From assembly GCA_049519175.1 (NCBI GenBank), contig JBEKQZ010000002.1:70782-134781 (forward strand): a stretch of 64,000 nt of DNA, read 5' to 3'. Positions 11,624 to 61,149 of the stretch are shown piece by piece (the stretch's first letter is position 1; every line of letters begins with the position of its first letter). Both the position numbers and the translations under genes were made by a program. This stretch comes from Candidatus Levyibacteriota bacterium. Lineage in GTDB: Bacteria; Patescibacteriota; Microgenomatia; Levybacterales; UBA12049. The notes beneath the pieces are model-generated. The model saw nothing but the letters and a program-made list of their open reading frames with translations, was not told where the DNA came from and made no database searches.

Positions 11624-11736
11624 TTGCGGGGAGATTACAAAATTTTCGCTGCTTTCACTCGAATTTCCTAATTCCAGGTTCTAACTAAAACCGAATGAGC
11701 TGAAAGTAAGAAAATTTTCATAAGCGACCTAAGCAA
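11624..11736. repeat. copy A of a ~115-bp direct repeat flanking leuS; it carries two GAAAATTTTC palindromes
   Basis: ttgcggggagattacaaaattttcgctgctttcactcg ... gagctgaaagtaagaaaattttcataagcgacctaagca. A near-identical copy lies at 14131-14244. Confidence 0.7.
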
Positions 11737-14130: not shown

Positions 14131-14244
14131 ATTGCGGGAAGATTACAAAATTTTCGCTGCTTTCATCCGAATTCCTTGGTAATAAAAATCTACTGATACA
14201 GTATGAGCTGAAAGCGAGAAAATTTTCGCAAGCGACCTCAGCAC
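14131..14244. repeat. copy B of the leuS-flanking direct repeat
   Basis: ttgcgggaagattacaaaattttcgctgctttcatccg ... gagctgaaagcgagaaaattttcgcaagcgacctcagca. It is in the same orientation as copy A. Confidence 0.7.
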
Positions 14245-24600: not shown

Positions 24601-27600
24601 CACTGACTAACAATACTTTAATCCAACAGACCGGTGGCGGGACCGTTACCAATCTTTTGAATTTAACCCAAAGTGCCGGGGCAGTGACTAACGGCATCAC
24701 TTTTTCCGGAACGTTTACCAGCTTAATTAATGATTCGACTGTTTTTAACATTAGTAACAGCGGGGCAGTTAGTGGAGCATCACTGTTACTTAATGATACT
24801 GCCGGCACTAATACAACTGGCATTGGCACCGGCACCACCACCGGACAAGTCACTATCGGCGGCGGTTCGGGAACAGCGGCGGTTAACACCACTAGCTGGA
24901 AAGTGACCTCAGCTGGAGCTGTCTCCGGCTTAACCGACTTGACAGCTTCCGGAACTATCACTTTCTCTGGTTTCAGCAACAGTGATGGAGTAATTTACGC
25001 TAGCTCAGGAGTGCTTTACCAAACAGCGGCCGAGACATCATCGAGTAAATGTTTGGTCGGCGGCGCTACTGCTCCCGCCTGGGCTTCCTGCTCTACCGCA
25101 GCCAGCAATTACTGGCAAAGGACCGCCGGCAATCTTTCACCTGCCACTACCAATGACACTTTAGCTGCGACTAGCTCTGCCGCAACGGTAGCAACCTTTA
25201 CTACTAATAATCCAACCGGCACTTTAACCAACAATACTTTAATCCAACAGACCGGCGCCGGGACCGTCACCAATCTTTTGAATTTAACCCAAAGTAGCGG
25301 AACTGTTACTAACGCCCTGTCTATCAGCGGGACATTCGCTACCGATTTAATCAGCTCACCGACTCTGGTAGTTACTAATGCCGGCGCTGCTTCCGGCTTA
25401 ACCGGCTTATCTTCTTCCGGAACCATCATTTTCTCCGCTTTCAGCAACAGTGGTGGAGTAATTTACGCTAACGCAGGCGCTCTTGCCCAAACAGCTGCCG
25501 GTACCTCTAGTCAATGTTTGGTTGGCGGCGCTTCTGCTCCCACCTGGGCTTCGTGTTCAGCAGTTTCAAACAACTACTGGAGTTTAGTTAATGGTTATGG
25601 AGCTTCCAACGGTGGGTATATCACGCCCATCAACTCCACCGCTGACTTTTTACTCGGCGGGCAATCCACCGCGTCGGCTAAATTTGCAATCTTGAACCTG
25701 AATAGTGGAACACCGACAGCTACCATCGCCGGCAATTTAATAGTAATGCCCTACACCAGCGGCAGCAACGAATCTGGTGGCGGCATACAACTCGGTTCCA
25801 CCATCAATAGCAACAATGTTTTAAATACAGTAGCTCAAGGTGGTGGACCCAGCGGAAACCTGTATTGGGGAAATACACAATTGCTTGATTCAGCCAATCT
25901 CGGTAGTTTCGGAGCATCGTCGGTCAGTAATTCCGACGGAACTTTAACTATCTCCCCGACTACCGGAGCAGTTGTCGCTTCGCTTAACTTATCCCATGCC
26001 AATTCCTGGAGCGGCGCGCAGACTTTTACCGCCAGCACCAACTTCCCCAGCGGCATTTGGAACACCAGCGGAAACGTTGGCATCGGCATCATTTCTCCTT
26101 TGACGGCTCTTGATGTGCGGGGAAATTCCGGCACCACAGCGGTGGCTTCTGTATCGGGACAGACTTCCTTTGCTGCCTTGGTCGTCAATAACAACGGCGT
26201 TGGCGATTTATTCACCGCTTCTGCCAGCGGCTGGACCAGGTTTACGGTTTCCAACACCGGCGCCTTAACGTCAGCCGCTTACACTGGACAAAACGGAATA
26301 CTGTATGGCACCCAGACAACAGGCGTTATTACTCAAGCCACAACTGCCTCTACTGGCCTTTGCTTAATCTCCGGAGCTTCATCTCCAACCTGGTCTTCCT
26401 GCTCTACCGCGGCCAGCAACTATTGGCAATTGGCCGGAAATGCCATCTCGCCAAATACAACAAGTTATGATTTACTGATTGGTTCTGCATCTACCTCTTC
26501 GGCCGCTTTTGCTTTCACCGGACTCATGGGTAGTCAAACCCAAGCTTCTTTCAGTGGACAGTTTGTCGTGATGCCCAATAATGGTTACGGAGGGAATGCT
26601 TCCATTTCGGGAAATTTAACTATCGGTGCGCTGGGAACCAGCTCTTTACAAACTACCAGCGATCAGACTCTAACTATTGGCGGAAATACCACCGGCAACA
26701 TTACACTTTCCCCCTACAATGGCTCTAACGGAATCATCAATCTTAATGCTCCGACCATCAATACCAATGCTACCACCCTGGCTCTGGTTAACACCACTGC
26801 TCTCACTGTGAATTTTGCCGGTGCTGCCACTGCCTTGAACATGGGAGCTCCCACCGGCAGCGCATCCTTGTCGGCAACACTAGTTCTGGGAGGAACTACC
26901 AGCTCTACCATTGAACCGGGCAACGGCACTTTAAACTTTGGCTACAAATCCGGAGCTAACACTTGGGGAACAGCGATGACAATACGGGACAATACCGGTT
27001 ATGTGGGCATCGGCACAACCAGTCCCGGCGCAACGCTTGATGTCAGCGGTAATTCGGGAACAAAAGCGTTTGCCAATTTTTCGGGAAATACTTCTTTTGC
27101 CGGAGTAACAATTAACAACTCCGGCTCCGGTGACTTAATTGCTGCCTCTGCTTCGGGGACAACTGAATTCAAAGTCGATAATAGCGGCGATGTTTACGGC
27201 AGAGTTTGGAAAGATTTGGACAACACTGCTTATTATATGGATTTAAACACCACCGGCTATTCACTTTTAACCGCCGGTTCTGTCGGAATCGGAACAACAA
27301 GTCCAGGAGCACCGTTAGAAATATCCAACGGAACTCAGGCTAAAATTAATCTTACTAAGACTGGCACAACTGCAGGAACTGCGGCAATATATAACGATGG
27401 CAATCTACACATTACCGGTAGTAACGGAGGCAGTAATAATAGTGTATGGATTGATACAGACTCATCTAGCGGATCGTACTCTGTACATATAAATGCAAAC
27501 AGTACGGGAAGCAAAACGCTTTTACAGGAGGCTGGCGGCAATGTCGGAATTGGGACGACAACACCACAAGCAAGTTTAGATATTGCAAATGGTACAAGCC

Positions 27601-30188
27601 GCACTAATGGCTCCACTGCTCTTCTTTTGTACGGCACCGGCAATGGATCAGGAACTGCAGGAGCTTATTCTTATCCTGCTGAATTCGATACGCAAATTAC
27701 ATCAAATATAGAAAGATTGCAAATTGCAGGATATAAACATGACACAACAGCAGACTGGTCGGGCACAGGTTTTAGAATTCAATATGGAGTCGATAGTTCG
27801 TTTACAGACGGCAGCAAAGCTTATGTATACATCGGCTCAACTACCAGCTATAACGGACTAGTTGCGTTAGGAACGGCCGGAAGCGACAGATTGGTAGTTG
27901 ATAATAGCGGCAATGTCGGAATCGGAACAACAGGACCGGGAGATGGAGCAAATACAACAGGCGTGCTTTCGGTTGAGAATACTATTTGGTCGGAAAGTGG
28001 ACATTTCGGCAGTAACTCCGGTAATGGAGTAGTAGTTATAGATTCAGGCCCAAGTGGCACAAGTAATTATTCCATTATCTTTAGAACAGATAATACGTTG
28101 GGTAATATATCTGGCTACGTCGGCCAGGCAGCCGTCTACAATAACGGAAGAATTGCTATAAGAGGTGCAACTTATATTACCGGCGGTATTGACGTTGCTG
28201 AAATTATCAAGACCCAAGACCTTTCTGTTAATGCCGGCGACATTGTTTCACAGGACAGTAGCTCTCCGACAAGTGCTCAAAAATCGCAAACAGCTTATAG
28301 CCAAAACGTCTTAGGAATAATTTCAACTAATCCGGGAGTTATTCTCAATACTGGAGACAATTTTGAGACTCCCCTATCCCAAAATCAAGTTAAACTAGCT
28401 TTAACAGGACGCGTGCCGCTAAAAGTAACGTCTAAAAATGGCGTTATAAGCTTAGGCGATCCAATTACCTCATCTCCCGTCTCCGGATTTGGCATGAAAG
28501 CAACTCAGGCAGGACAAATCGTTGCTAGAGCAATGGAAACTTTCGACCCAAGCACGGCATTTTGTCAGGCTGTAAATTCAATCTCCGATATACAATGGCC
28601 GGCTGACGATGGAAATAATCCCGCGAAGCCATGTTTTAAATTACCAGATGGCTCATATGTTGGCAAAATAATGGCTTTACCGGAAAACTCTTGGTATGAT
28701 CCACAGGTGTATTTGACTTCAAGCGGAGATTTGAGTTTAGTTGACCAGACGGCGGCCGATACCGACTTTACTGTTCCTCACTACTTTACGTTGAACGACG
28801 CTTTGGGAAATCCCCTGCAAAGAGTCGGAGAATTTTCCGACGCCGCAATCGCGAATTTGCGGGTAGGATTGGTAAATGCCCAGCAGGTAACGACCACTGC
28901 TTTATCGGTTTCAACCGAAAATGTGACAATTGCCGGACAAAGTTTGCATAATTACATCGCTTCTATTGTTTCCGAACAACTGGCGAGCATTCAAAACCTA
29001 ACCTCTAATAATGTTGTCTCCCCGATTGCTTCGACCGACGAAATCCATACCAATTTTGTCTCGCCGGTTGATGATACTGCGCAAATTGGATTGAAACTGG
29101 ATAATAATAAATTGTCTGTTTTGAGCGGTAATTCTGCCAGCTCTTCGGCGATAGCCACCATTGATAATTCGGGCAACGCTAGTTTCAGCGGACAGCTAAC
29201 TTCCAATAGTTTGAACACAAACGACGCGACCGTGAGCGGAACTTTGCATGTCGGGAAAATTATCGCCGACGAAATCGTCGGCGCAACTCCGTCGGCAACT
29301 TACGTTACCAACGTCACCAATATCTATAATAGTAGCCCGTCTGCTTCTAATTCCGACTTTGGACTGATTGCCGACGCCGCTACCGTCGGCACTGCTTCAG
29401 CAGTCGGTAGTGAGCAGTCAGCGGCCAACGGCTACATTGACATCAGTTCTTACTCCGGACAACTGACGTATGTCCCAAATTTGGGCGCTGACAACGCCGT
29501 GTTTGGCCAAAATCTAACGGTGTTTGGAGAAACTTCCCTTTCCGATACTTCGATTGTCGGTCAACTTTCGGTCAACGGCAGCTTAATACTGGCCGATAAC
29601 TCGATTAATGTTTTGGGCAGTGATTTAAATCTGCAACCACTACGGCAAGGCGGACTGTCAATTATGGGCGGCTTAGTTTACATTGATACCGACGGAAACT
29701 TAAAAGTTGGCGGCAATGCCGAGTTTGCCAAAAATGTCACGGTCAATGGAACACTGGCAACCAATGTCATCAGTCCCCTGCCCGGCAATGATTTAAATGT
29801 GAATACCGGAAATTCCAATCTCCAAATTACGAATGCAAGCGATTCCGCTATTTTGAGCGTTAACAATTTAGGCGATTTGGTCGCCAGCGGAGCCGGAACA
29901 TTTAGTAAATTAAACCTTGGGCTGGTTCAGCCGGCGCTGGCCGTTTCCCAAACTGAAGTTGTTGCCACCGGCTCCGCCGGAACAGCCAACATTGCCCCCT
30001 ACCAAACTCAAGTAACAATTGATGACCCGGTCGTAACCGACAAGAGTTTGATTTACATCACGCCGACTTCCAGCACCAACAACCAGGTTTTGTATTTGCT
30101 AAAACAAGTGCCGGATGAATCTTTTACCGTCGGCTTACAAAATCCAAGTATCGCGCCAATTCCGTTCAATTGGATTATCGTAAATTAA
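21615..30188 (+). CDS. giant (2857 aa) membrane-anchored surface protein. The N-terminus has two tandem integrase-type SAM-like/core-binding domains, then one TM helix, then a repetitive Gly/Thr/Ser/Asn-rich β-helix or fibre-like ectodomain
   Basis: Residues ~1-100 (VTVKNYLSDINHFIHWYE...LERHFSSLRKFFKFLL) and ~120-200 (LTIKNYLIDIKQFITWVQ...INRKLSSLRKYLAWVQ) resemble the XerD/phage-integrase N-terminal domain. The TM helix is IVHYLHFAVLIIFLIAISFGFYNVFF. Repeated motifs include GNVGIGTTSP, P(L/A)LDVRGNS...GVGDLFTASASGWTRF and a ~200-aa repeat starting YWQRTAGNLSP. Confidence 0.85.
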   Translation: MDLLNLFKTYLFSQEDKSSKVTVKNYLSDINHFIHWYENTFTKSFNPKEISSLTLNDYRASCSQAFSPSSLERHFSSLRKFFKFLLIESKISLNPFEIKNLKLEAQHDPWHIKDFKDFLYVSNASHLTIKNYLIDIKQFITWVQAVTESNNVLGDIDSKLIEEYKQRLLEQGDFSPATINRKLSSLRKYLAWVQAKGLVSLQPSISNFQFPISNQLSNEAIEQPINQQPAERKYSAFPPFRIAQKISNAFIFALDSGLIIYLAKLVDRIEYALWKTKGQPVFAKLKTQNVKFKNLTSNFQILNPASSVQRPASVKNLPKSFYAPLEISTKFFPWYKKAWITARYSRPKWYKTYHSYPIVHYLHFAVLIIFLIAISFGFYNVFFQKGNQSPTLAASPVAPLRILSFQGRLTDNNDNPITTPTNLRFGIYTSSSATDSASTAIFPWQEVDTVSPDQDGIFNAILGNNSPIPSTLFTQNNALWLGVTVGTTPELTPRQQLATVAFATNAETLQGMVPTTSNPAAYTNTVLALDGTASSPTLTIGGLVGATFQATGGQFQILGTPLLLGTTNGSGGNVIIAPDGAGLIDLQKPLVNTTNNNNLAGAAGAVEVDDTFGILATSSATAFVLNQNGAGDLMAASASGITKFRIANTGQIIAPYYNSCTLKTDSSGNITCGSAGGAQFWQELSGALSPSNLGDDVLLGSSSTASAKFAFTGLMGTQTQASFSGQLIVMSDNGYGGNVGIGTTTPSVALDVAGAGKFSSNLTASTGNISLANTSGNTTIGNGSGTLALSSSAFNVTTGGAVSGVTTLSMNNQLSNSYANTAAINLTGNAAGITFGGSGANQIITGGTNNLALMPGGNVGVNTTSPLAPLDVRGNSSTTAVASVSGQTSFAALVANNNGVGDLFTASASGWTRFRITSAGTVLPGATNAQDIGSSSLQWNNIYANNYYLNGVPLTFGGYWQRTAGNLSPVNTNDTLAATSSAATVATFTSNNPTGTLTNNTLIQQTGGGTVTNLLNLTQSAGAVTNGITFSGTFTSLINDSTVFNISNSGAVSGASLLLNDTAGTNTTGIGTGTTTGQVTIGGGSGTAAVNTTSWKVTSAGAVSGLTDLTASGTITFSGFSNSDGVIYASSGVLYQTAAETSSSKCLVGGATAPAWASCSTAASNYWQRTAGNLSPATTNDTLAATSSAATVATFTTNNPTGTLTNNTLIQQTGAGTVTNLLNLTQSSGTVTNALSISGTFATDLISSPTLVVTNAGAASGLTGLSSSGTIIFSAFSNSGGVIYANAGALAQTAAGTSSQCLVGGASAPTWASCSAVSNNYWSLVNGYGASNGGYITPINSTADFLLGGQSTASAKFAILNLNSGTPTATIAGNLIVMPYTSGSNESGGGIQLGSTINSNNVLNTVAQGGGPSGNLYWGNTQLLDSANLGSFGASSVSNSDGTLTISPTTGAVVASLNLSHANSWSGAQTFTASTNFPSGIWNTSGNVGIGIISPLTALDVRGNSGTTAVASVSGQTSFAALVVNNNGVGDLFTASASGWTRFTVSNTGALTSAAYTGQNGILYGTQTTGVITQATTASTGLCLISGASSPTWSSCSTAASNYWQLAGNAISPNTTSYDLLIGSASTSSAAFAFTGLMGSQTQASFSGQFVVMPNNGYGGNASISGNLTIGALGTSSLQTTSDQTLTIGGNTTGNITLSPYNGSNGIINLNAPTINTNATTLALVNTTALTVNFAGAATALNMGAPTGSASLSATLVLGGTTSSTIEPGNGTLNFGYKSGANTWGTAMTIRDNTGYVGIGTTSPGATLDVSGNSGTKAFANFSGNTSFAGVTINNSGSGDLIAASASGTTEFKVDNSGDVYGRVWKDLDNTAYYMDLNTTGYSLLTAGSVGIGTTSPGAPLEISNGTQAKINLTKTGTTAGTAAIYNDGNLHITGSNGGSNNSVWIDTDSSSGSYSVHINANSTGSKTLLQEAGGNVGIGTTTPQASLDIANGTSRTNGSTALLLYGTGNGSGTAGAYSYPAEFDTQITSNIERLQIAGYKHDTTADWSGTGFRIQYGVDSSFTDGSKAYVYIGSTTSYNGLVALGTAGSDRLVVDNSGNVGIGTTGPGDGANTTGVLSVENTIWSESGHFGSNSGNGVVVIDSGPSGTSNYSIIFRTDNTLGNISGYVGQAAVYNNGRIAIRGATYITGGIDVAEIIKTQDLSVNAGDIVSQDSSSPTSAQKSQTAYSQNVLGIISTNPGVILNTGDNFETPLSQNQVKLALTGRVPLKVTSKNGVISLGDPITSSPVSGFGMKATQAGQIVARAMETFDPSTAFCQAVNSISDIQWPADDGNNPAKPCFKLPDGSYVGKIMALPENSWYDPQVYLTSSGDLSLVDQTAADTDFTVPHYFTLNDALGNPLQRVGEFSDAAIANLRVGLVNAQQVTTTALSVSTENVTIAGQSLHNYIASIVSEQLASIQNLTSNNVVSPIASTDEIHTNFVSPVDDTAQIGLKLDNNKLSVLSGNSASSSAIATIDNSGNASFSGQLTSNSLNTNDATVSGTLHVGKIIADEIVGATPSATYVTNVTNIYNSSPSASNSDFGLIADAATVGTASAVGSEQSAANGYIDISSYSGQLTYVPNLGADNAVFGQNLTVFGETSLSDTSIVGQLSVNGSLILADNSINVLGSDLNLQPLRQGGLSIMGGLVYIDTDGNLKVGGNAEFAKNVTVNGTLATNVISPLPGNDLNVNTGNSNLQITNASDSAILSVNNLGDLVASGAGTFSKLNLGLVQPALAVSQTEVVATGSAGTANIAPYQTQVTIDDPVVTDKSLIYITPTSSTNNQVLYLLKQVPDESFTVGLQNPSIAPIPFNWIIVN

Positions 30189-31977: not shown

Positions 31978-34146
31978 TTGATAAGTTTAGAACACATGCA
32001 AAACGAACAACAGAAATTGGAAATCGTCAATTACATCGAGCGGGCTTCAATTGTGATTTTAGGACTGCTGTTTATCCTCTTTCCGGTGTTTTTAACCAAT
32101 TTGACGACTGACTATTTTATCCTGCCAAAACAAGCGCTGGTTATTTTTGCCTGCATCGCGGTCATGATTTTATACGGCGTCAAAACTTTACTGCTGGAAA
32201 AAGTCCGGATTAGAAGAACGCCTTTTGACTTGGCTGTCATTCTTTTCTTGGCCGCGATTTTGCTATCGTCAATCTTTTCCGCAGCTTGGGCTGATTCGCT
32301 AAATAATTTTATTCCCGTGCTTTTTGCCGGTCTGCTCTATTTTGGTATCGTTTACAATGCCACCAACGGAAAAGCGGTGATGCTTTTGATCGGCAGCCTT
32401 TTAACCGGCGCTTGCCTTTTGGCCGTTATGCCGATTCTTGCGCATTTGCAAATTTACGTTTTACCCTATGATTTTACCAAAGTCACCGTTTTCACTCCCA
32501 CCGGCTCAAATTTAGACCAAGTTTTGTATTTACTATTTGTCTTGCCAGTTAGCGTCTACTTTGTCTTACCGTTTTTGCTCAAAAAACAGGCGAGCAAAAT
32601 TTTCAGCGAGAAAAAAGAAGATCTGGTTAAAATCTTCGGTTTTGGTTTAGCCGGCATAATCATTCTAATCGGACTTGCCGTATCAATCTATAATTTAATA
32701 CAACCTAATGGATTCATTATTCTCCCGCTTGAAACCGGCTTTCAGACCGCTTTCGCCGCCATTTCGCAAGACGCCGGCCGGACTTTGCAGGGCTTTTTGT
32801 TCGGTAACGGTTTCGGCGAATATCTTTTAGCTTTTGCCAAATTTAAACAGGCTAGTTTTAACGCTAATCCGACGCTGTGGGGACTTGGTTTTATTCATTC
32901 TTCCAGCTTTGTCTTGGAACTTTTGGCAACCACCGGCATACTGGGATTTTTGAGTTTTCTTTATCTTTGCTACAGAGTTATCCGCGAAAGACCACTGTTT
33001 GTACCGGTCATCATCATTTTGGCAGCCGCTTTTATCCTACCTTTAACTTTTATTAGCTTAGCCCCTTTGTTTTTCCTGTTGGCAATTTACGCCGCCTTAC
33101 GCGGGCTATCCAACGACCAGAAATATTTTGACGTTGAACTGGAACTGGTAGCTTTTAAAAAAGGCTTGATTACGTTTACGACCGAGGGTGAAAAAAGAAA
33201 GGACTACGGAAAAATTCTTTCCTATTCTATTTTTGGCATCATTCTAATTGTGGTAGTATTACTTGGCTTCCTAAGTTTTGACTTCCTTTCTACCAACGTC
33301 ACTTTTAACAAAGCTTTAGTTGCTGCCGACCAAAATAACGGCCAACTCACTTATACTTATGAAAATGCCGCCGTCAGTAGTTTTACCGGTAAATACAATG
33401 ACAGCTACTTTAGGACTTTTTCGCAAACCAACCTGGCGTTGTCCAATTCGCTGGCGGCTTCCGTTCCACAAGGAGCTAGCCCAAGCGCCCAAACCCAGCA
33501 AACGATTTATACGCTTGTCCAACAATCAATCAATGCCGGAAGACAAGCCACGACCTTATCCTCGCAAAATCCGCTGGACTGGCAAAATCTAGCCTACATT
33601 TATAGAAATCTAATTGGCTTTGGACAGAATGCCGACCAATTCGCAATCGCCGCCCAACAGCAAGCGATTCAACTTGACCCGGCCAACCCGCAGGAATATA
33701 TTAGTTTGGGCGGAATTTACTACCAATTGGGAACCTGGGATAAAGCCTTGGCACAATTTCAACAAGCGGCGGCCTTGAAATCTGATTTTCCTAACGCCTA
33801 CTACAACATCGCTCATACTTTAATTCAACAAGGAGATCTAAAAGGTGCACTGGCGCAACTTGAAACCGTTAAATCTTTGGAAACAAACGACCCAACCAAT
33901 CTGGCTAAAGTCAATGCTGAGATTACGCAACTGCAAGCGCAGATAAACAAACAAGGAGTTGGGGGACAAACAACCACAGGCAACGGACAGACAACTTTAT
34001 CGACCAATCCGCCAACAGAGAATCTACCGAAACAGAATCCGCCGGTAAAAATTCCGGCGCCGGAAGCGACTATTACGCCAACCACTACTCCAACTCCGAC
34101 AACCGAAGGGGGAACTCCTCTTCCTACCGCCACCCCAACACAATAA
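31978..34146 (+). CDS. O-antigen ligase/polymerase-like (Wzy_C-type) membrane protein with C-terminal TPR repeats and a TP-rich tail
   Basis: ~12 TM helices with a large periplasmic loop. C-terminal TPR-like repeats (AYIYRNLIG..., YISLGGIYYQLGTWDKALAQFQQA, AYYNIAHTLIQQGDLKGALAQL). Ends in a TPTTTPTPTTEGGTP tail. Confidence 0.6.
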   Translation: MISLEHMQNEQQKLEIVNYIERASIVILGLLFILFPVFLTNLTTDYFILPKQALVIFACIAVMILYGVKTLLLEKVRIRRTPFDLAVILFLAAILLSSIFSAAWADSLNNFIPVLFAGLLYFGIVYNATNGKAVMLLIGSLLTGACLLAVMPILAHLQIYVLPYDFTKVTVFTPTGSNLDQVLYLLFVLPVSVYFVLPFLLKKQASKIFSEKKEDLVKIFGFGLAGIIILIGLAVSIYNLIQPNGFIILPLETGFQTAFAAISQDAGRTLQGFLFGNGFGEYLLAFAKFKQASFNANPTLWGLGFIHSSSFVLELLATTGILGFLSFLYLCYRVIRERPLFVPVIIILAAAFILPLTFISLAPLFFLLAIYAALRGLSNDQKYFDVELELVAFKKGLITFTTEGEKRKDYGKILSYSIFGIILIVVVLLGFLSFDFLSTNVTFNKALVAADQNNGQLTYTYENAAVSSFTGKYNDSYFRTFSQTNLALSNSLAASVPQGASPSAQTQQTIYTLVQQSINAGRQATTLSSQNPLDWQNLAYIYRNLIGFGQNADQFAIAAQQQAIQLDPANPQEYISLGGIYYQLGTWDKALAQFQQAAALKSDFPNAYYNIAHTLIQQGDLKGALAQLETVKSLETNDPTNLAKVNAEITQLQAQINKQGVGGQTTTGNGQTTLSTNPPTENLPKQNPPVKIPAPEATITPTTTPTPTTEGGTPLPTATPTQ

Positions 34147-34526
34147 ATAGTATTTCGTATTTAGTATCAAGTGTTTAGCGCCAATAAAACTTGCCAATTC
34201 GTATGCTCTCCGTTTCTTTTGCGATCGAACAAAGAGCGTTAAGTTTTGCGAAATGAGAGAATCAGGGGGAACCCGTGAATTCGGAGGGGGTGTTATCACC
34301 CGATGAACGAATTGAGCAAAATAGCTCGACTTCGCCCGCAAAAAGTTTTGTGTTACTTTCCAAAAAGTAACAAATATAATTTAAAGCTACAGCTTTGCGA
34401 AAAAAAGAAGAAGAGAGTTGTTTCCCACAAAAAACACATCCTAAAAGTATATTGGAATAAACTCAGGAGAAAAACAGGCAATAACAACCTTAATACTAGA
34501 TATTTGTTACTTAATATTAGTTACTA

Positions 34527-34832: not shown

Positions 34833-35021
34833 AATTTAAATCTCAACTTGCGTTGAAAATTAAAAATTGAAAATTGATGTGTCACCTCCTTTCTGAACTT
34901 TCATGTATATTTTTCCCTTTTCTCCTGTTTTTTAGTTCAGAAAGAATCGAGGAACTGATACCATAAGTACTACTTGCAAGTATAGAGGCAAAATGGAGAA
35001 ATAGCAAGTACGACCAATTTG

Positions 35022-45652: not shown

Positions 45653-46516
45653 TCAAAGACCGCGTCGGAACATCTGTTGACGGGATTTTTCTGGAAACAT
45701 AGCATCGCGCTGCTTATCCGATAATTCTCCTGAAATTCTAAATCTTGTAATGGGATTTCTTAATGTCCCGAAGAACAAGCGCATTACAGCCTCTTTCCCA
45801 TACTTTCCCACCAACTCGTTAACAAAATCAATCTCAATGTCATGGCTATTACTCATACCCAGAAGCCTGTCAATAACATCTACTGCAATAAAATCAGCCG
45901 CCAGCTCTTCCCATGCAAGTGGTAAATTCCGAGCATGATATTTATGTCCTAATTCATGCGCTACTGCAGGAATATATCTTATACAATTCCAGAAATCCGA
46001 TGGGACGATATCATAGTCTTTAACCCCAGGGTACTTACTTACCCTTTCTTTCTCTTTAGCAGAAAGAGAAGCATAGTCTCTAGAAAGATTTGCGGGCATA
46101 TCTTCCCAAAACTTGGGGTCAATAGTAATTAGTGGGAATCCAATTTTTGATTCATTAAAAGATTTACCACGAACATCTTCACGGCCTAAATCTGGGGGGA
46201 TAAAAAAATAATCGGGATCAATACCATTTTCCTCACAGTAATCGGCCGCTAGGCGTATTCCTAATTCATCATCTTGCTTCGTAAGTATAATATTTTTACT
46301 TGCTCCCCTGCCGCTCTCCCTAGCCTTTGCTGGCATATATTGTCCAAAATCAGCCTCAATGATACCACAAAAAACTGGAGCGATTCTAGCAATAGCTCTG
46401 TCAAGTTTAGGAGAAGCTTCCGATGCCTCAGTTCTTAGTCTATCTCCTAGATCTTTTGCTTCTCCTGCTTCTGCCATAGATGAACTAATAATCTCAATAA
46501 AACTAGTCCGTGTCAA
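45653..46516 (-). CDS. hypothetical protein with an HExxH zinc-metallopeptidase motif (ImmA/IrrE-like)
   Basis: Motif VAHELGHKYHARN. 287 aa. There is no signal peptide. Confidence 0.45.
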   Translation of the reverse strand: MTRTSFIEIISSSMAEAGEAKDLGDRLRTEASEASPKLDRAIARIAPVFCGIIEADFGQYMPAKARESGRGASKNIILTKQDDELGIRLAADYCEENGIDPDYFFIPPDLGREDVRGKSFNESKIGFPLITIDPKFWEDMPANLSRDYASLSAKEKERVSKYPGVKDYDIVPSDFWNCIRYIPAVAHELGHKYHARNLPLAWEELAADFIAVDVIDRLLGMSNSHDIEIDFVNELVGKYGKEAVMRLFFGTLRNPITRFRISGELSDKQRDAMFPEKSRQQMFRRGL

Positions 46517-46540
46517 TTGTGTTTGCCAACATGCAGCCGA

Positions 46541-46696
46541 ATGCCTGAAAGGTTGAGTGAATGCGTCAGGGGAATTCCTCAGACAGCGAAGCTAGATTGA
46601 GGAAGGGGTGAAATTACCCGACAAATGAACGAAACCTTGAAAGCATGAGGCAAGACTTGGCAAGAGTTTTTGATTCTTTTTGCGGAAAAAAGAATA
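46541..46696. ncRNA. copy 1 of a ~150-nt conserved structured element (candidate cis-regulatory RNA or small RNA). It lies immediately upstream of the minus-strand HExxH gene
   Basis: ~85% identical to 47890-48044. Three stems show compensatory changes between the copies: aaggtt/aacctt versus aagatt/aatctt; cctca/tgagg versus ccgca/tgcgg; and the GCGG-loop hairpin attcttttt/aaaaagaat versus gcgtctttt/aaaagacgc. Confidence 0.45.
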
Positions 46697-46884
46697 AAGA
46701 CTGACTTTGTCAAGAGGAAAAATAAAATGTCCCCCAGTTATCCACATCTTTTGACTAAAAATAGAAAAGACCGCCAAATCAATCCAAACGATACACTATT
46801 TACTATGAGTTCTCGTGGATTTTCTTTATTTTTGGGCTATAGGTTTGAATACAACCAGAAGTTGTGATACAATTCTTGTAGATT

Positions 46885-47031
46885 ATGAAATTTAAGTTTT
46901 TAAGCACCAAAGGCAAGACAGCAGTTAAAACAATCGCCGACTACAAACAACAAATCTTAGTGAAGCAAGGCGCAGAACAATTTAAAAAGCTCTTGGAAAA
47001 AGGGATTAGTATTCCGGTAGTTTTGCTCTAA
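46885..47031 (+). CDS. possible 48-aa small basic protein
   Basis: ATG at 46885 to TAA at 47029-47031 (MKFKFLSTKGKTAVKTIADYKQQILVKQGAEQFKKLLEKGISIPVVLL). It is below the ORF-track cutoff. It is followed by a hairpin terminator at 47270-47310. Confidence 0.2.
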   Translation: MKFKFLSTKGKTAVKTIADYKQQILVKQGAEQFKKLLEKGISIPVVLL

Positions 47032-47269
47032 ACTCTAGCTAAATACTAGAAGAGCATCGCTTTCGTTACTTGGATAATAAGCTCTTTGTACGATAAGCAA
47101 TGCTCTTGGAAAAAGGGTAATTAGTCCTTTAGGCAGGAAATAAAACTAATTACCTATTTAGAGTTAATAGCAAATAAATAAAAAGTTGTCAAGGAAAATT
47201 GATGAGGCCAAAAGTTATCGATTAACTTGATTTAGATTGATATTTTTATATCAATATTTGGAAGCTAGA

Positions 47270-47310
47270 ATGGTGATACGACGATTGGGCAGGTTGTCGT
47301 ATCACCTTTT
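47270..47310 (+). terminator. intrinsic-terminator-like hairpin
   Basis: ggtgatacgaca-ttgggcagg-ttgtcgtatcacc (12-bp perfect stem) followed by ttttt. Confidence 0.5.
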
Positions 47311-47316
47311 TAGAAT

Positions 47317-47829
47317 CTAGGAAATGCCATTAAGTTTTTCCCACTTCTTAATAAGCTCGAGCGACTCATTTTCAAAATACGGTAAATAAACTAATTCAAT
47401 CTTTCTATTATTCTCCTCGTTAAGCTTATCTTTATCCGTTCTTCCCTCATAATAGCCTTTTGAAACCATTTCTGAAGTTTTTCCACAACCGTAAACAATC
47501 CTAGAAATCCCCGCCCAATATGCAACCGAGAAACACATCGTGCAACAAGCTAAGCTTTCATAAAGAGTTGCTCCAGACAAGTTAGTTGTTTTAAGAGTTT
47601 TACATGCTTCTCTAATTGCCGCTGTTTCAGCATGACTGGTGGGATCGTGAAACAAAGAACCTAAACTTAAGCCTTCGCTGATAACCTTCCCATCTTTAAC
47701 AACGACTGCGCCTGCAGGGAAACCGCCTTGATCGACAGATTTTTCCGCCTGTTCAAAAGCAAGTTTTAGATAATCTTTATCGCTCACGGTAAAATTATAG
47801 CAGTTTTTTGGAGAAGAGAATGCGGCCAT
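47317..47829 (-). CDS. CMP/dCMP-type zinc deaminase (guanine or tRNA-adenosine deaminase family)
   Basis: HAETAAIREACK...SLACCTMCFSVAYWAGISRIVYG matches the H(A/C)E ... CxxC zinc-binding signature. Confidence 0.75.
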   Translation of the reverse strand: MAAFSSPKNCYNFTVSDKDYLKLAFEQAEKSVDQGGFPAGAVVVKDGKVISEGLSLGSLFHDPTSHAETAAIREACKTLKTTNLSGATLYESLACCTMCFSVAYWAGISRIVYGCGKTSEMVSKGYYEGRTDKDKLNEENNRKIELVYLPYFENESLELIKKWEKLNGIS

Positions 47830-47889
47830 GTTAATGATAAATGATTAAGGATTACTGATTAATGAATTTTTTCGTCCGTCCGCAGATGA

Positions 47890-48044
47890 CTGCATGAAAG
47901 ATTGAGTGAATGCGTCAGGGGAATTCCGCAGATCACGAAGTGAGATTGCGGAAGGGGTGAAATTACCCGACAAATGAACGAAATCTTGAAAGCTGGAAGC
48001 AAGGCAGGACGAGAGTTTTGGGCGTCTTTTGCGGAAAAAGACGC
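47890..48044. ncRNA. copy 2 of the conserved structured element. It lies immediately upstream of the minus-strand deaminase gene
   Basis: See copy 1. The same stems are retained with compensatory substitutions. It lies 60 bp from the deaminase start codon. Confidence 0.45.
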
Positions 48045-48050
48045 AAGGAT

Positions 48051-48866
48051 TTAAAGAAGTTTCTTGGAGAATAAGATTCTTCCCGCCGAAGTTTGAATAA
48101 CTCTTGAGACAACCACGTCTAATTCTTTACCCAAATCTTGAGCGGCATTTTCAATTACGATCATCGTTCCGTCGTCTAAATACCCTACTCCTTGAGTCTG
48201 ATCTTTACCGATATGTTGAATCTGAATATGCAAAGTTTCCCCCGGAACTGCAATAATTTTTAGAACGTTTGCCAAAGTATTCATGTTGACTGCAGAAACT
48301 CCGCCGATGCTTCCCTTTTTCTCCAAGTTATAATCGCAGGTAATCAACCTGCCTTTATTTAATTTGGCTGCCTGAATCAATTTTTCGTCAACTTCTTTTA
48401 ATTTATCCAAACCCATCAATTTTTCTTTTTCCTGGGAAATTGCGATTAGCTTAATGCCTTTAACTTTTTTCACTTTTTCCAAAAGCTCCAAGCCTTTTCT
48501 GCCTTTTTCCCGTCTGACCAAGTCTTTGGAATCGGCAATGTGTTTTAACTCCAACAGAATACTTTCCAAAACGACGAAATTGCCGCGGAAAAGTCCTAAA
48601 TTGATAACGTCAAAAATTCTGCCGTCAATAATGGCGGACGTGTCCAAAAAAATGGCGCCGTCCAAATGCCCGTTGGGTTTTTTCTTTTTTTTATTATTTG
48701 AACGTCGAAGCGGCAGTCTTCTGGCCACAGTTTTGGCCACTTCATCGGCCAGCATTGCGACGAACCGCGGCGAGAAATGAACGCCCTTTTCGGTCGTCTG
48801 CACCGCCGGAATATTTTCTTCCATGACTTTTTTTTGCGCTTTTATAATTTCTTTTTTCCCTTTCAT
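48051..48866 (-). CDS. PIN and TRAM domain protein (YacL-like)
   Basis: PIN region IFLDTSAIIDGRIFDV...VVLESILLELKHIAD. C-terminal TRAM-like GETLHIQIQHIGKDQTQGVGYLDDGTMIVIENA. Basic N-terminal extension. Confidence 0.75.
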   Translation of the reverse strand: MKGKKEIIKAQKKVMEENIPAVQTTEKGVHFSPRFVAMLADEVAKTVARRLPLRRSNNKKKKKPNGHLDGAIFLDTSAIIDGRIFDVINLGLFRGNFVVLESILLELKHIADSKDLVRREKGRKGLELLEKVKKVKGIKLIAISQEKEKLMGLDKLKEVDEKLIQAAKLNKGRLITCDYNLEKKGSIGGVSAVNMNTLANVLKIIAVPGETLHIQIQHIGKDQTQGVGYLDDGTMIVIENAAQDLGKELDVVVSRVIQTSAGRILFSKKLL

Positions 48867-56565: not shown

Positions 56566-56680
56566 TTTCTGGCAATGACCCATTGTCCCAACATAATGTT
56601 AGTATCGTAGGCGCTGAAACGTTTCACTTCTCTGTTCGGAATGGGAAGAGGTGGTGCCGCTTCGCACAAATTACCAGAAA
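56566..56680 (-). rRNA. rrf: 5S ribosomal RNA
   Basis: Reverse complement ...GGCACCACCTCTTCCCATTCCGAACAGAGAAGTGAAACGTTTCAGCGCCTACGATACTAACATTATGTTGGGACAATGGGTCATTGCCAG. It has the CCGAAC...GAAGTGAAAC loop C/helix III signature, and the terminal helix pairs. Confidence 0.7.
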
Positions 56681-56873
56681 ATTTCTATCTTCAATTTTTA
56701 AAGTTCTGTTGACTCTTTAAAAGGTGAAGAGAAGGATACTTAATCTACTCTAAAAACCATTAGTACGGGTAAGCTCAACACTTTACAGTGCTTCCACCGC
56801 CCGCCTATCAACCTCGTAGTCTACAAGGGGTTTTATCCAGCTTGCGCTGAAACGATATCTTATCTCGGAGGCC

Positions 56874-56904
<31 letters not shown>

Positions 56905-57045
56905 GGTTGGGAATCTAGCTACCCAGCGATGCTCTTATTCAGAAACAACTGGCACACCAGGGATTCCCTCATCCCAGTCCTCTCGTACTAGGGACGAATC
57001 TCCTCAAATATCAACGATTATACAGGATAGAGACCGAACTGTCTT

Positions 57046-57141
<96 letters not shown>

Positions 57142-57458
57142 CGACTTGTTACCAAGCGCTCTGACTATACCTTCATCCCCTATCATCTTTGTAAGGGGAG
57201 CTAGTCTTTTATAGAAGTTATAAATTTGTTTTTGAAACAAGCACTTCTATCTTCAGTCGCCTAAGGCGACATCCAGTCGATACGGGCCCACTCACAATAA
57301 ATTGTGAGGGGTTCCCTCGGTGTTGTCCAAAAAACTTTTGGAGTTCACCGATTTTGACTAGTCTATTTTATTATTCCAACGCATTCTCTACAGATGCGTT
57401 CTTTCGAATAACCAGGCTTAAGAATTTTTTCTTAGGCGCCCCGATGTAAATTACATAA
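57142..57458 (-). other. ORF-less group I-type intron in 23S domain V, at about E. coli position 2500
   Basis: The exon sequence GGCACCT|...|CGATGTCGGCTCATCACATCC is split by ~317 nt of non-rRNA sequence. Confidence 0.6.
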
Positions 57459-57500
57459 GGTGCCAAACCGCATCGTCGCTGTGGACGCTTGGATGCGATC

Positions 57501-57533
<33 letters not shown>

Positions 57534-58012
57534 AAGCTGTATGCCTACCACTAGGCAATACAGGATCACTAACATCGACTTTCGTCCCTGCTCGACTTGT
57601 AGGTCTCGCAGTCAAGCTGGCTTATGCGTTTGCACTATCACTTCGATTTCCATCCGAAGTTAGCCAACCTTTATACGACTCCGTTGCGTTGTAGGAGTCA
57701 ATCGCCCCAGTTAAACTGCCCGCCAGACAATGTCCCTCTGCCGAATTTTTGTGCGGCAAGGGGTAATGATTGCATATTCCAAAGAGAGGTATTTCATATT
57801 TCGCCAAAGCTCCCTCCTATTCTAAACAGTTAGAATATACTTTCAAATGCCAAGCTACAGTAAAGCTCCCGGGGTCTTTTTGTCCATGTATAATTAGGCC
57901 GCGTCTTCACGGCCATCTCAATTTCGCCGAGTAAATGTTCAAGACAGTTATTCACTCATTCTACCTTTCGTGCGGGTCGGAACTCGCCCGACAAGGAACT
58001 TCGCTCATTATG

Positions 58013-58980
58013 TTATTCCTAGATTTACGAATCTAGACTCTCCGATTCGCATCGGAGTTCGGACTATATCTTGTCGCCAAAGGCGACTTCTGCGTTTAGT
58101 CTCTGAGGATTTCCTACAAATTTGTAGGATCTTTCCTGCTGATTGGCTCCACCAAACAGATTATCAGTTCGAAATTAAATCGAACTACCGTTGGATACTG
58201 AGCTATTCCAGCATATAGCAGAATTTCTAAAACACTTTTCTAAGGCAACGATTGCCACCATAGAACAGTTCACATTGTTACTTGCTCTGATTGGCTACAG
58301 AGTCTCATGGTCGTCCATGAGGTCGGACTATATCATCATCGTCTCTTAAGACGAGTTTAGCGTATAGTCTCTGAGGATCCCTTCATCGGAAAATATATCA
58401 TTATATTCATATTTTCTTGTTCTTCCTTTACCTTCATTCAATTTTTCTCTTAAACGTAAAATTTTCCTTAAACCCTTAACATTTCTGTGTTCTCCACTTT
58501 CAACAAATTTTGCAATTTCACAAAAAATTTTAAAGTTACTAATTTTACTTTTAGAAAGTAATGGATATTTAGAAAAATATGGAATAACTCTTTCAACTAT
58601 TTCTTTAGAGTTTGTTGTGTCCAGAGAATGCAAGCCATCCCTTCTTGTCTTGATAATTCCACATCCTAATTCTTTTTTTAATATATAAAGAACTGATGGA
58701 TCTTTTTGTGAAACATTGAAACTTAAAACGATTTGCCAGTTAACTTTATAATCACTTTTTTTACGAAGTGATACATTAAAGCTACCTTCTCCTTCTACAA
58801 ACCCTGCTATAAAATAGCCTAAATTTTTCCGATCAAGGTCTTTCCTGCTGATTGTCTGCACTGGACGTTTTTTCACTAAGTTAAATATAACATAGTAACG
58901 CCAGATACTTCAACCGTCTGTTGTATAACAGTTACGGTACAGGTTTTCCAGCATATAGCTAAATTTTACAACTACAATTG
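58013..58980 (-). other. group I intron(s) in 23S domain IV, at about E. coli positions 1917-1931. Contains a homing-endonuclease ORF
   Basis: Exon ...GTAACTATAA is interrupted, and exon sequence resumes at ...GAGCGAAGTTCCTTGTCGGG. There are internally duplicated segments (ggactatatc...tctctgaggat twice; ccagcatatagc twice). These suggest two adjacent introns rather than one. Confidence 0.55.
58346..58876 (-). CDS. LAGLIDADG homing endonuclease (intron-encoded)
   Basis: LGYFIAGFVEGEGSFNVSL is a LAGLIDADG motif. 176 aa, which is the single-motif homodimer size class. It lies inside the 23S intron. Confidence 0.8.
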   Translation of the reverse strand: MKKRPVQTISRKDLDRKNLGYFIAGFVEGEGSFNVSLRKKSDYKVNWQIVLSFNVSQKDPSVLYILKKELGCGIIKTRRDGLHSLDTTNSKEIVERVIPYFSKYPLLSKSKISNFKIFCEIAKFVESGEHRNVKGLRKILRLREKLNEGKGRTRKYEYNDIFSDEGILRDYTLNSS

Positions 58981-61073
58981 CTTATAGTTACTGCTGCCGT
59001 TTACTGGAGCTTATATCACAAACTGACATCTTGCGACGTTTTATTCACGATATTTGACTTACCAGCACTGGGCAGGTGTCAGCCCCTATACTTTGCCTTT
59101 CGGCTTTGCAGGGACCTGTGTTTTAGATAAACAGTTGGTAAATAAACTTTTGCTGCGGCCGCGTTCTTACACGCGGCAAGACATATCCCAAAGGTTACGT
59201 CTAGCTTTTTTGCCGAGTTCCTTGAACATCTTTCTCTCGATCGCCTTAGTCTTCTCGACCAATCCACCTGTGTCGGTTTGCGGTACGGAAAAATATGAAT
59301 TTTGACCCGCCTTGCGGCGGATCCTAATGAAATTTTTCTGGGAAACTGAAAGCTACTAAATCGGAATTATTGCTAACCCCTTTCATTTGCAGCTTGATTA
59401 AACACGGTAATGGATTTGCCAATTACCACTATCTCACTGCTTAGACCAAACGTATTCGGCTTAGCTCTTCCACTTTCGTCCTTCCCTTAGATTATTCATA
59501 CCTTGTAGTCGAATTTCAACGACTTAACCATCGGGCTACGCCCCTTTAACGAGACACACCCTTAGGACCGACTAACCCTCCGCTGACTTACATTGCGGAG
59601 GAAACCTTGGATATTCGGCGTTTAGGATTCTCACCTAAATTTCGCTACTCATACCGGCATTCTCACTTCTATCCGCTCCACCAAACCTTACAATTCGGCT
59701 TCACTGCAAATAGAACGCTCCCCTACCAATCGCATTGCTGCGAGTCTCCAACTTCGGCAAATAGCTTAATCCTCGGTTTATTTTTCGCGCCAGATATCAT
59801 CCTCCAGTGAGCTGTTACGCTTTCTTTAAAAGATGGCTGCTTCTAAGCCAACTTCCTGGTTGTCTATGAAATCTGACTTCGTTCAAAACTTAGCTATTAT
59901 TTAGAGGCCTTAGATGGGAGTTTGGGTTGTTTCCCTCTCGACTCATCGGCTTAGCCCGACAAGACTGACTAGTAGCATAATTACATCTGCATTCGAAGTT
60001 TGATTAGTTCCTACATCTTGCGACGCAAGTAACCATTCAGTGCTCTACCTCAGTGTAAAATTAACTACCGCTATACCTAGATATATTTCGGGGAGAACCA
60101 GCTATCTCTGGGTTCGTTTGGCATATTGCCCCTAACCTCAGGTCATCCCAACCAATTGCTGCTGATACGGGTTCGGGCCTCCTGCTAACTTTCGTTAACA
60201 TTCACCCTGCCCAAGGTTAGCTCACCCAGTTTCGGGTCTAATGATTGCAACTAATTGCCCAGTTAGGGCACGCTTTCACTCTGCCTCCCCAAGACAAGCT
60301 TGGTTAAGCTAACGCTGCAATCAATAACTCACCGGTTCATTCTTCAATAGGCACGACGTTATACCCTTGCGGGCACTTCGTCTGCTTGTTAGCCGACAAT
60401 TTCAGTTCTATTTCATTCCCCTCCCGGGGTGCTTTTCACCTTTCCCTCGCGGTACTAGTTCACTATCGGTAGACTTTGATATTTAGTCTTGGAACGTGGC
60501 CGCCCCAGATTCCCACAGGGTTTCACCGTACCCCATGGTACTTAGGAACAAACTATCGTAAATTTTCATTTCGCATACGAGCCTTTCACTCTCTGTGGAA
60601 GACCATTCCGGGTCTTTCTGCTATAAAAATTTAATCGAATATCGTCTGCCCTGCAACACCACAATAAATTGTGGTTTAGACTGTTCCGCTTTCGCTCACC
60701 GCTACTGACGGAATCTCATATGATTTATTTTCCTGGCGTTACTTAGATGTTTCAGTTCACGCCGTTCCCAGCCAAAAGTTATATACATCCTTACGGACAT
60801 AAGTTCATTTCTGGCTACCGCGTAAAACGCGGTGGGTTCCCCCATTCGGACACCGCTGGATCAAAGGTTGATGGCACCTCCCCAACGAGTATCGCCGCCG
60901 TCTGCGTCCTTCCTCGGTCAAAGCCTCCTAGGCATCCATTATCGGCATTATAAGTAGATTAAAAATCTTCTCTTCACTTTTCAAAGAGCCAACTCATCTT
61001 TTGTCTAGCAAGTAGCGGCCACGCGTGTGGCAAGCGCTACTTGCTAAACAGTAACTAATAATAGTTACTAACC

Positions 61074-61149
61074 TGGTGGACCGTGGCGGACTCGAACCGC
61101 CTACCTCTTCATTGCAAATGAAGTGTTCTACCAGGTGAACTAACGGCCC
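61074..61149 (-). tRNA. tRNA-Ala (anticodon UGC), CCA encoded
   Basis: Reverse complement GGGCCGTTAGTTCACCTGGTAGAACACTTCATTTGCAATGAAGAGGTAGGCGGTTCGAGTCCGCCACGGTCCACCA. It is a clean cloverleaf with G3:U70. It sits ~110 nt upstream of the 23S 5' end, in the usual spacer position for this tRNA. Confidence 0.85.

Follow-up and report, generated by a model that had tools for sequence, protein, structure and literature searches.

The window analysed here is the whole 64,000-nucleotide (nt) stretch of contig JBEKQZ010000002.1 (assembly GCA_049519175.1, positions 70,782 to 134,781) from a Candidatus Levyibacteriota bacterium. One part of it holds an open reading frame (ORF) with an HExxH motif (45653-46477, minus strand), a deaminase gene (47317-47829, minus strand) and a gene at 48051-48866 that Pfam identifies as encoding a PIN+TRAM protein. 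Two copies of a structured intergenic element, A and B, adjoin these genes, and a third, divergent copy, C, lies further 5' in the window. The original prediction, made from the letters alone, took A and B for a riboswitch or leader common to two minus-strand genes. The evidence presented below points instead to a self-contained unit of about 175 nt whose fold is selected and which appears to belong to a previously undescribed family.

Copies of the element in the window

A repeat search of the window aligned 46533-46690 with 47882-48039 at 83% ungapped identity. Copies A and B are 86% identical in a MAFFT alignment and 82% identical over the full unit, so that the earlier estimate of about 85% holds by three measures (82-86%). 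Shuffles predict no occurrence of the 34-nt core in the window, which contains exactly two. The two copies had been located correctly, but not their 5' start, as the paired unit begins approximately 18 nt further 5'. Their outermost helix covaries too (TTGCCAA/TTGGCAA in A and TCGTCC/GGACGA in B), and the units are therefore drawn to include it (Table 1). After copy A, an A-rich tail runs to about 46703. Further copies also exist: C, which belongs to another subfamily, and more in other genomes. With three copies, the window is unusually rich in the element.

Table 1. Positions of the element copies, their parts and associated features in the window
Feature	Position	Strand	Description	Evidence
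Copy A, full unit	46523-46695	+	First pair of outer helix P1a to end of 3' hairpin	Covariance-model R1 match 46517-46703, 191.5 bits
Copy A, rod 5' arm	46523-46567	+	P1a TTGCCAA ... P1g GTC; holds the GA halves of the tandem G·A loops	Helices 1-4
Copy A, J12	46568-46574	+	AGGGGAA, unpaired, near-invariant in the family	Invariant columns (conservation inflated by search pattern)
Copy A, P2	46575-46604	+	Hairpin; base UUCCUC/GAGGAA conserved, tip variable (here GCGAAGC)	Helices 5-6
Copy A, P3	46606-46619	+	Hairpin GGGUG-AAAU-UACCC, near-invariant, G·U closing pair	Folding, alignment
Copy A, rod 3' arm	46620-46663	+	GAC ... TTGGCAA	Alignment
Copy A, U-rich linker	46664-46672	+	GAGTTTTTG	Invariant G, A, T, T columns
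Copy A, HP3	46673-46695	+	AU-rich 3' hairpin ATTCTTTTT-GCGG-AAAAAAGAAT	8/9 pairs changed on both sides
Copy B, full unit	47872-48044	+	Same architecture as A	R1 match 47866-48052, 182.1 bits; folding
Copy B, J12	47917-47923	+		Copy A coordinate + 1349
Copy B, P2	47924-47953	+		Copy A coordinate + 1349
Copy B, P3	47955-47968	+		Copy A coordinate + 1349
Copy B, HP3	48022-48044	+		Copy A coordinate + 1349
Copy C, full unit	34219-34372	+	Divergent copy of another subfamily, core CAGGGGGAACCCGUGAAUUCGGAGGGGGUGUUAUCACCCGAU	R1 match 34212-34380, 54.6 bits, E 1.2e-10
5' stub	34191-34206	+	TTGCCAATTCGTATGC, 16 nt left from an older copy of subfamily 1; immediately upstream of copy C	Orthologous site in L013/L130
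Promoter-like site	46488-46516	-	TTGACA-17-GATTAT for the HExxH ORF; context, not part of the element	10/12 consensus matches

Fold and covariation

On the plus strand, each unit forms a rod of about 35 bp (P1a to P1g) with four tandem GA/GA internal loops, three of which are highly conserved. The tip of the rod opens into a three-way junction composed of J12 (AGGGGAA), hairpin P2, one G and hairpin P3 (GGGUGAAAUUACCC), with junction strands of 7, 1 and 0 nt. On the 3' side of the rod are a conserved U-rich linker (GAGUUUUUG), the AU-rich hairpin HP3 and an A-rich tail of 6-8 nt. P2 tips alternate between a GNRA-capped extension and a conserved 9-nt loop (CAAACUUGU), and types of 3' hairpin are common to different rod subfamilies. 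In copy C the G·U pair of P3 is replaced by G-C and the loop is different, a change that supports the P3 hairpin.

The compensatory changes already noted between A and B were confirmed. They fall in helix P1d, the outer stem (AAGGTT/AACCTT vs AAGATT/AATCTT), in P2, the inner hairpin (CCTCA/TGAGG vs CCGCA/TGCGG), and in the 3' hairpin with its GCGG loop (ATTCTTTTT-GCGG-AAAAAAGAAT vs GCGTCTTTT-GCGG-AAAAAGACGC). Covariation also extends to further homologues, among which 91-95% of paired cells can pair, against 39-53% in controls with slid pairing partners. In a MAFFT alignment of 41 copies, which was not fitted to structure, the values were 91.2% and 41-53%, and 30 of 47 pairs were changed on both sides compared with 8-13 when slid. 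The observed values were reached by none of 500 shuffles on four of five measures and by four of 500 on pair types. A model-fitted alignment of 75 distinct copies, which leans towards structure, gave 94.6% against 39-46%. Across alignments 30-35 of the 47 pairs are changed on both sides, and within rod helices 1-4 this is true of 19 of 26 pairs. P3 and the base of P2 hardly vary and are therefore left untested by covariation. Overall, the pairing of the element appears to be under selection.

The step from covariation to a functional RNA rather than a mobile element is less secure. Selected pairing stands, but the argument is not decisive, because mobile DNA of the REPIN type also shows compensatory changes. 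In REPINs such changes are common, insertion into existing copies occurs and the elements persist in the long term (PMC3116915). Similarly, the core described earlier as invariant is so only in part: CAGGGGAAUUCC and GGA(A/U)GGGGUGAAAUU(A/C)CCCGA are near-invariant, although this is inflated because near-invariant strings served as search patterns, whereas CAAAUGAACGAAA is covarying rod sequence.

Other readings of the core were considered and rejected. A pseudoknot of the 9-nt P2 loop with the GAGUUU linker could have six pairs, but changes in the loop or the linker at loci L028, L054, L060, L113 and L088 are uncompensated. An alternative from RNAalifold pairs J12 (GGGGAAUU) with AAUUACCC; both sides are invariant, and copy C fits the P3 hairpin better. 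A small ORF running through the core was rejected for both strands, as most subfamilies lack an AUG. P2 length differs between copies by non-multiples of three, and the element is considered non-coding for this reason.

Distribution and novelty

An exact 18-mer scan of one genome per species returned 30 loci, about 22 of them true homologues, with several per genome. All true homologues are in metagenome-assembled genomes of the Levybacteria/Patescibacteria type, some of which automated assemblies label as 'uncultured Gammaproteobacteria'. Nine of the 30 genome loci, together with L048, L081 and L084, were discarded, since in these the pattern had matched unrelated GC-rich or coding DNA by chance. 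At least 119 metagenome loci came from a second pattern that was partly independent of the first. There are 97 unique full-length copies, 77 of them below 92% identity, and all lie in contigs of the Levybacteria/Patescibacteria type. Two viral-contig scans produced no matches, and an unfiltered covariance-model search of 99 kb of host DNA produced no extra copies. The family is one of low copy number, with roughly one to five copies per genome, and it appears to be specific to Microgenomates-type bacteria of the Candidate Phyla Radiation (CPR).

Searches of Rfam 15 agree with the earlier failure to match the element to any riboswitch or ribozyme class. At gathering thresholds the whole window gave only rRNA, tRNA and a group I intron. 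In E-value mode on 46400-48200, the best match to the element was RAGATH-8, at 11 bits where 86.7 are needed, and no consistent match came from nine loci drawn from several subfamilies. The literature, searched in full text both for sequence strings and by topic, offered nothing relevant, the matches to CAGGGGAATTCC being NF-kB oligonucleotides. By these comparisons, the family appears to be undescribed and its architecture unlike that of any described family, set apart by periodic tandem G·A loops, the near-invariant three-way junction and the additional AU-rich hairpin. 6S RNA was also considered, a single-copy rod of ~180 nt whose centre forms a large bubble and which ends in a long stem. 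It was rejected, as the element has no Rfam 6S match, occurs in three copies in 64 kb with turnover, and has a junction single strand of 7 nt and a short P2.

Strand and gene context

Folding energies favour the plus strand, at -50.4 and -48.5 kcal/mol for copies A and B, compared with -38.2 and -35.9 kcal/mol for the minus strand. Across the rod and P2 there are 47 G·U cells to 18 A·C cells, and the G·U pair of P3 is near-invariant. The conserved GA/GA loops read UC/UC on the minus strand, and long P2 variants are capped by GAAA, GUAA or GAA loops on the plus strand. Tandem G·A loops and GNRA tips would make sense on the plus strand only. With this strand preferred, the structured strand is antisense to both genes to which a leader had been assigned.

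The deaminase gene was identified correctly (Pfam dCMP_cyt_deam_1, 3.8e-22), but the label 'ImmA/IrrE-like' for the HExxH gene is unsupported, as Pfam gave no match to this ORF. Both genes adjoining copies A and B vary between close relatives: the related loci L092 and L129 lack the HExxH ORF, and L045 lacks the deaminase gene. Among 496 flanking ORFs, an all-vs-all BLAST found no recurrent adjacent protein family and only orthologous housekeeping neighbours. The latter form small recurring sets, such as those with the 3' end of a PIN-TRAM gene or the 5' end of an aminoacyl-tRNA synthetase gene.

Context was counted in 60 non-redundant cases, with the strands of the upstream and downstream genes given relative to the element. 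The arrangement is (-,-) in 25 cases, (+,-) in 21, (+,+) in eight and (-,+) in six. Convergent intergenic regions are thus enriched and divergent ones depleted, and in co-directional contexts the element is antisense to its neighbours by 25 to 8. A downstream gene on the same strand is present in only 14 of the 60 contexts, and these genes are unrelated. The neighbours in these contexts are mostly housekeeping genes of unrelated kinds, in all four orientation combinations. The hairpin end abuts the 3' end of a gene in 46 contexts, at a median of 35-50 nt.

A promoter and terminator scan, which is a consensus pattern match only and not proof of function, placed a promoter-like site between copy A and the ATG at 46477, ending 10 nt before this ATG. 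This suggests that the HExxH gene has a very short leader or none; if the minus-strand site is real, copy A is outside the HExxH mRNA. The same scan found no terminator-like site at copies A or B. A canonical terminator is present at 47272-47306, and the window encodes Rho. A possible internal promoter, TTGCCA-N17-TGAAAG, was rejected since its positions covary as helix P1a. The 3' hairpin was likewise rejected as a terminator: on both strands it has a U-rich sequence before it and an A-rich one after it, which is not canonical in either direction.

A minus-strand riboswitch or 5' leader common to the HExxH and deaminase genes is, on this evidence, extremely unlikely. Copies A and B do lie 37-45 nt upstream of a minus-strand start codon, and one transcript could run from the PIN-TRAM gene through copy B into the deaminase gene, as no promoter-like site was found between them. 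The element also shares with riboswitches and leaders a conserved junction core, covarying stems and several copies per genome. Unlike them, it has no consistent downstream gene, no consistent orientation and no expression platform, either terminator or sequestrator, and its better-folding strand is antisense to its neighbours in the window. The promoter-like site next to copy A, the unrelated neighbours and the mixed orientations in the 60 contexts all count against a leader. So do the relatives, as L092 and L045 carry a copy at the site of A without the HExxH gene and L129 has no copy there; moreover, copy C is not upstream of any minus-strand gene start.

The context counts also bear on a cis-acting role at gene ends, as a 3'-end stabiliser, processing site or terminator/insulator, such as has been proposed for REP, ERIC and Correia elements. 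The excess of convergent and deficit of divergent regions, the abutting of gene 3' ends and the conserved U-run after the rod would all suit such punctuation. The under-representation of the sense orientation in co-directional pairs (8 vs 25) would be expected if the sense fold were polar. However, terminator geometry is not canonical on either strand, with a 3-nt spacer from the rod to the U-run in addition to the misplaced U-rich and A-rich sequences, and the genome has ordinary terminators and Rho. An invariant three-way junction exceeds what a stabiliser needs, and most co-directional contexts would transcribe the weaker-folding strand. We regard a role as punctuation as quite unlikely.

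Conservation and turnover at orthologous sites

Related genomes allow the sites of the three window copies to be compared. At the site of copy A, L097 has the arrangement seen in the window, and its element is 92.7% identical to copy A, compared with 79% for the adjacent glycosyltransferase gene. The subtype carried at this site by L092 and L045 is a different one, 84.9% identical to B but 78.8% to A, and both lack the HExxH gene. In L129 the element is missing there, and about 150 nt with a different small repeat is present instead. At the site of copy B, the element of L129 is 88.8% identical to copy B compared with 80% for yacL, and in L045 both the deaminase gene and the element are absent. 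At the site of copy C, L013 and L130 have an intact subfamily-1 copy downstream of the same TPR gene (31978-34146 in the window). The window itself has a 5' stub there, then the intact subfamily-3 copy C and probable 3' remnants at about 34385-34420. Resident copies are more conserved than adjacent coding DNA and are therefore under purifying selection, yet copies are also gained, lost or replaced between related genomes.

Nesting of this kind recurs. In 13 of 98 unique copies a 5' stub of another copy lies just upstream, and in four of 98 a 3' remnant lies downstream, although two of these four remnants are boundary artefacts of an inserted palindrome. All stubs and remnants point the same way as the intact copy, and inverted or middle pieces are absent. 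Between copies at different loci, homology ends at the edges of the fold. One inferred explanation of the 3' hairpin types common to different subfamilies is nested insertion followed by recombination between direct repeats there. The inserted palindrome (CCTGCCTGCCGGCAGGCAGG), which is 20 nt long and GC-rich, occurs at differing positions inside element copies in L033, L036, L038 and L071, and it looks like a separate tiny insertion element.

Flanking direct repeats of at least 7 nt were found at 8 of 67 copies compared with 3.2 expected, an excess reached by eight of 1000 permutations; offsets are inconsistent and most copies have none. No terminal inverted repeats were found when the first 30 nt were compared with the reverse complement of the last 30 (local scores 4 and 8). 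The inverted repeat, that is the rod, is internal and the 3' hairpin lies outside it. Neither the flanks nor the 37 window ORFs contain a transposase, reverse transcriptase or integrase gene. An attC-like cassette site of integrons was rejected, as the variable genes are not flanked by a second site and an R-box pattern is lacking. Across the window the plus strand has a negative GC skew, and the minus strand encodes the rRNA operon. These observations place the structured strand of all three window copies, a small sample, on the leading-strand template. This argues against a single-strand mechanism of the IS200/REP type with the structured strand active, and an IS200/IS605-type single-stranded DNA element (PATE), for which the lagging-strand template would be expected, was rejected on the same observation.

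Comparison with known mobile and structured elements

REPINs and MITE-like structured repeats are the closest known kinds. Like REPINs, the element is short, non-coding and intergenic, forms a long hairpin whose copies differ by compensatory changes, inserts into earlier copies or beside them and persists in the long term (PMC3116915). In contrast, REPINs are symmetric, with two inverted conserved REP sequences that pair with each other, and number tens to hundreds per genome clustered around a RAYT gene, whereas copies of the element are few. The core of the element is asymmetric and mostly unpaired in a three-way junction, and the extra 3' hairpin lies outside the rod. Neither of the conserved blocks CAGGGGAAUUCC and GGAAGGGGUGAAAUUACCCGA is an inverted copy of the other. 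Both belong to the junction and hairpins, and it is the paired rod that varies. No RAYT-like gene (an IS200-like Y1 transposase) is present among the flanking ORFs or the 37 window ORFs.

ERIC, Correia and Rickettsia palindromic elements (RPEs) are likewise ~100-200 bp long, lack an ORF, lie in intergenic regions or 3' untranslated regions, have strong hairpins and vary in copy number between relatives, all of which the element resembles. Structured repeats similar to MITEs (transposable elements of the miniature inverted-repeat type) may affect neighbouring transcripts (PMC10969869). Unlike these MITE-like repeats, the element has no terminal inverted repeats or consistent target-site duplication. 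Instead of a plain inverted repeat it has a branched junction and conserved G·A loops of non-Watson-Crick type, and its resident copies are more conserved than flanking genes. No parental insertion sequence was found in the element flanks or the window.

HEARO RNA, the omega RNA of IscB, and the IS605-orfB motifs are multi-helix covarying RNAs with several copies per genome and mobile-like behaviour. In these respects the element is similar. RNAs of the HEARO/omega type adjoin a nuclease or transposase gene and carry a variable guide segment, whereas the element has no adjacent partner gene, no variable unpaired segment resembling a guide and no Rfam match.

A purely mobile, non-autonomous DNA of the REPIN, MITE or RPE kind, with a DNA hairpin recognised by a transposase encoded elsewhere and no RNA function, is a possible but doubtful explanation. 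It would account for the multiple copies, the differences in presence and subtype at orthologous sites, the co-oriented nested insertions, the end of homology at the fold, the excess of 7-8-nt flanking repeats and the avoidance of divergent promoter regions (6/60), and REPINs set a precedent for compensatory changes and mutual insertion (PMC3116915). It fits less well with the absence of terminal inverted repeats, the position of the 3' hairpin and the asymmetric, unpaired conserved sequences in place of two inverted REP-like halves. Low copy number, resident copies that evolve more slowly than adjacent coding DNA, and the lack of a transposase beside any copy or in the window also speak against it. 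The structured strand is on the leading-strand template rather than the exposed lagging one in all three window copies, and its GNRA tips and tandem G·A loops are of a kind typical for folded RNA.

Another candidate is a new self-cleaving ribozyme, or an RNA-mediated (retro)element whose folded RNA would itself be copied. This would explain the compact multi-helix fold around a junction core that is conserved and largely unpaired. The copy unit is the fold plus a variable A-rich tail, with no promoter carried along, and the alternative P2 tips suggest interchangeable tertiary contacts. The junction strands of the hammerhead ribozyme are CUGANGA, GAAA and H. Hammerhead and other known self-cleaving ribozymes were rejected, given that no Rfam ribozyme family matches and that AGGGGAA, G and no nucleotide (7/1/0 nt) do not fit the hammerhead strands in a textbook comparison. 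No reverse transcriptase gene is nearby in the flanks or among the window ORFs, and the antisense bias is opposite to that expected of an element relying on host transcription. Full-length new copies beside truncated old ones are unlike the 5' truncation of target-primed reverse transcription. Such an origin is considered very unlikely.

Other repeats and features of the window

Several small repeats accompany the element. AT-rich heptamer arrays (TTAATGA x5, TAGTATT x4.4 and TTGAAAA x3.6) are found at 47831-47865, 34148-34178 and 34853-34877, and copy B and the stub that precedes copy C each have such an array immediately on their 5' side. Copies at many unrelated loci are flanked by similar arrays (L040, L086, L101, L129, L131, L140, L003, L090, L116 and L056). 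A second small repeat, GCGGGGAGATTACAAAATTTTC, is present at 11626-11647 (+) and 14134-14155 (+), flanking the leucyl-tRNA synthetase gene, with none expected by chance. It recurs near the element in L083, L095, L098, L101, L129, L130 and L020, and two copies of it occupy the site of copy A in L129, where the element is absent. Outside the window, a covarying hairpin followed by TGACA (AGATCCTGAAAnnnnTTCAGGATGACA) is found 20-40 nt downstream of many subfamily-2 copies (L004, L009, L024, L026, L039, L046, L047, L054, L059, L088, L110, L118, L124-L126 and L144). In L004 and L026 the ATGACA of this hairpin is followed 17 nt later by TAGAAT, which looks like the promoter of a methionyl-tRNA synthetase gene.

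The rRNA region at 56567-61149 comprises tRNA, 23S and 5S genes. A group I intron (66.4 bits) at 58040-58273 on the minus strand interrupts the 23S rRNA gene (56740-60960), whose match spans 4221 nt compared with 2925 nt for the model, and further insertions are likely. Rfam reported no 16S rRNA in the window despite about 3 kb upstream of the 23S gene, and the rRNA operon appears to be unlinked. A very large ORF of 2857 amino acids is located at 21615-30188 (+).

Interpretation

The explanation we favour, with confidence about evenly balanced, is that the copies form a new interspersed family of structured units of about 175 nt that are self-contained, low in copy number, selected for their fold, occasionally mobile and not leaders. 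Each copy would be a unit whose boundaries coincide with the fold and which is read on the plus strand. It would sit between genes, mostly at their 3' ends, and not act as the leader of adjacent genes. Selection on the single-strand fold would keep the element intact, most probably as RNA, and the conserved junction may be a module for protein docking or for the tertiary fold. Occasional copying into new sites, often into older copies, would leave related genomes different in presence and subtype. The comparisons above show the fold and its covariation, the strand preference, the distribution, the orientation bias, purifying selection, turnover, nesting and the lack of an Rfam match. That the element is transcribed, that it has a binding partner and the way in which it moves are points that we infer.

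Several observations weigh against this explanation. No sigma-70 promoter lies at a fixed distance upstream of the unit, only an AT-rich flank, and no canonical intrinsic terminator follows the element. Given the antisense bias of 25 to 8, read-through from neighbouring genes would mostly make the other strand. Invariance of the core is inflated by the search patterns, the offsets of the flanking repeats are inconsistent, and the flanks and the window ORFs are without a gene for mobility. An RNA-level role is favoured, not proven, as single-stranded DNA can likewise hold stable G·A pairs, GAA or GAAA loops and G·T pairs.

A bolder proposal sees in the element a new class of compactly folded RNA, the core of a ribozyme or a ribonucleoprotein. 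The RNA itself would be copied, with ends set by the fold, an A-rich tail and no promoter taken along, and would be an RNA-based mobile element in reduced CPR genomes. We consider this unlikely. If it were true, the tandem-G·A rod would present the invariant three-way junction, and P2 would carry interchangeable modules for tertiary contacts. The idea that AGGGG or GGGGUGA would be complementary to the 3' end of 16S rRNA and mimic a Shine-Dalgarno sequence is speculation.

The element is also a concrete case in which covariation alone cannot tell a functional RNA from structured mobile DNA. The genomes of CPR bacteria (Patescibacteria) are small and streamlined and contain little non-coding DNA, and apart from the universal ones hardly any of their non-coding RNAs have been characterised. 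The same fold recurs across many Microgenomates from groundwater and peat metagenomes. The element would be either a functional RNA of these bacteria that has gone unrecognised, or a selfish element of an unusual kind that persists in them.

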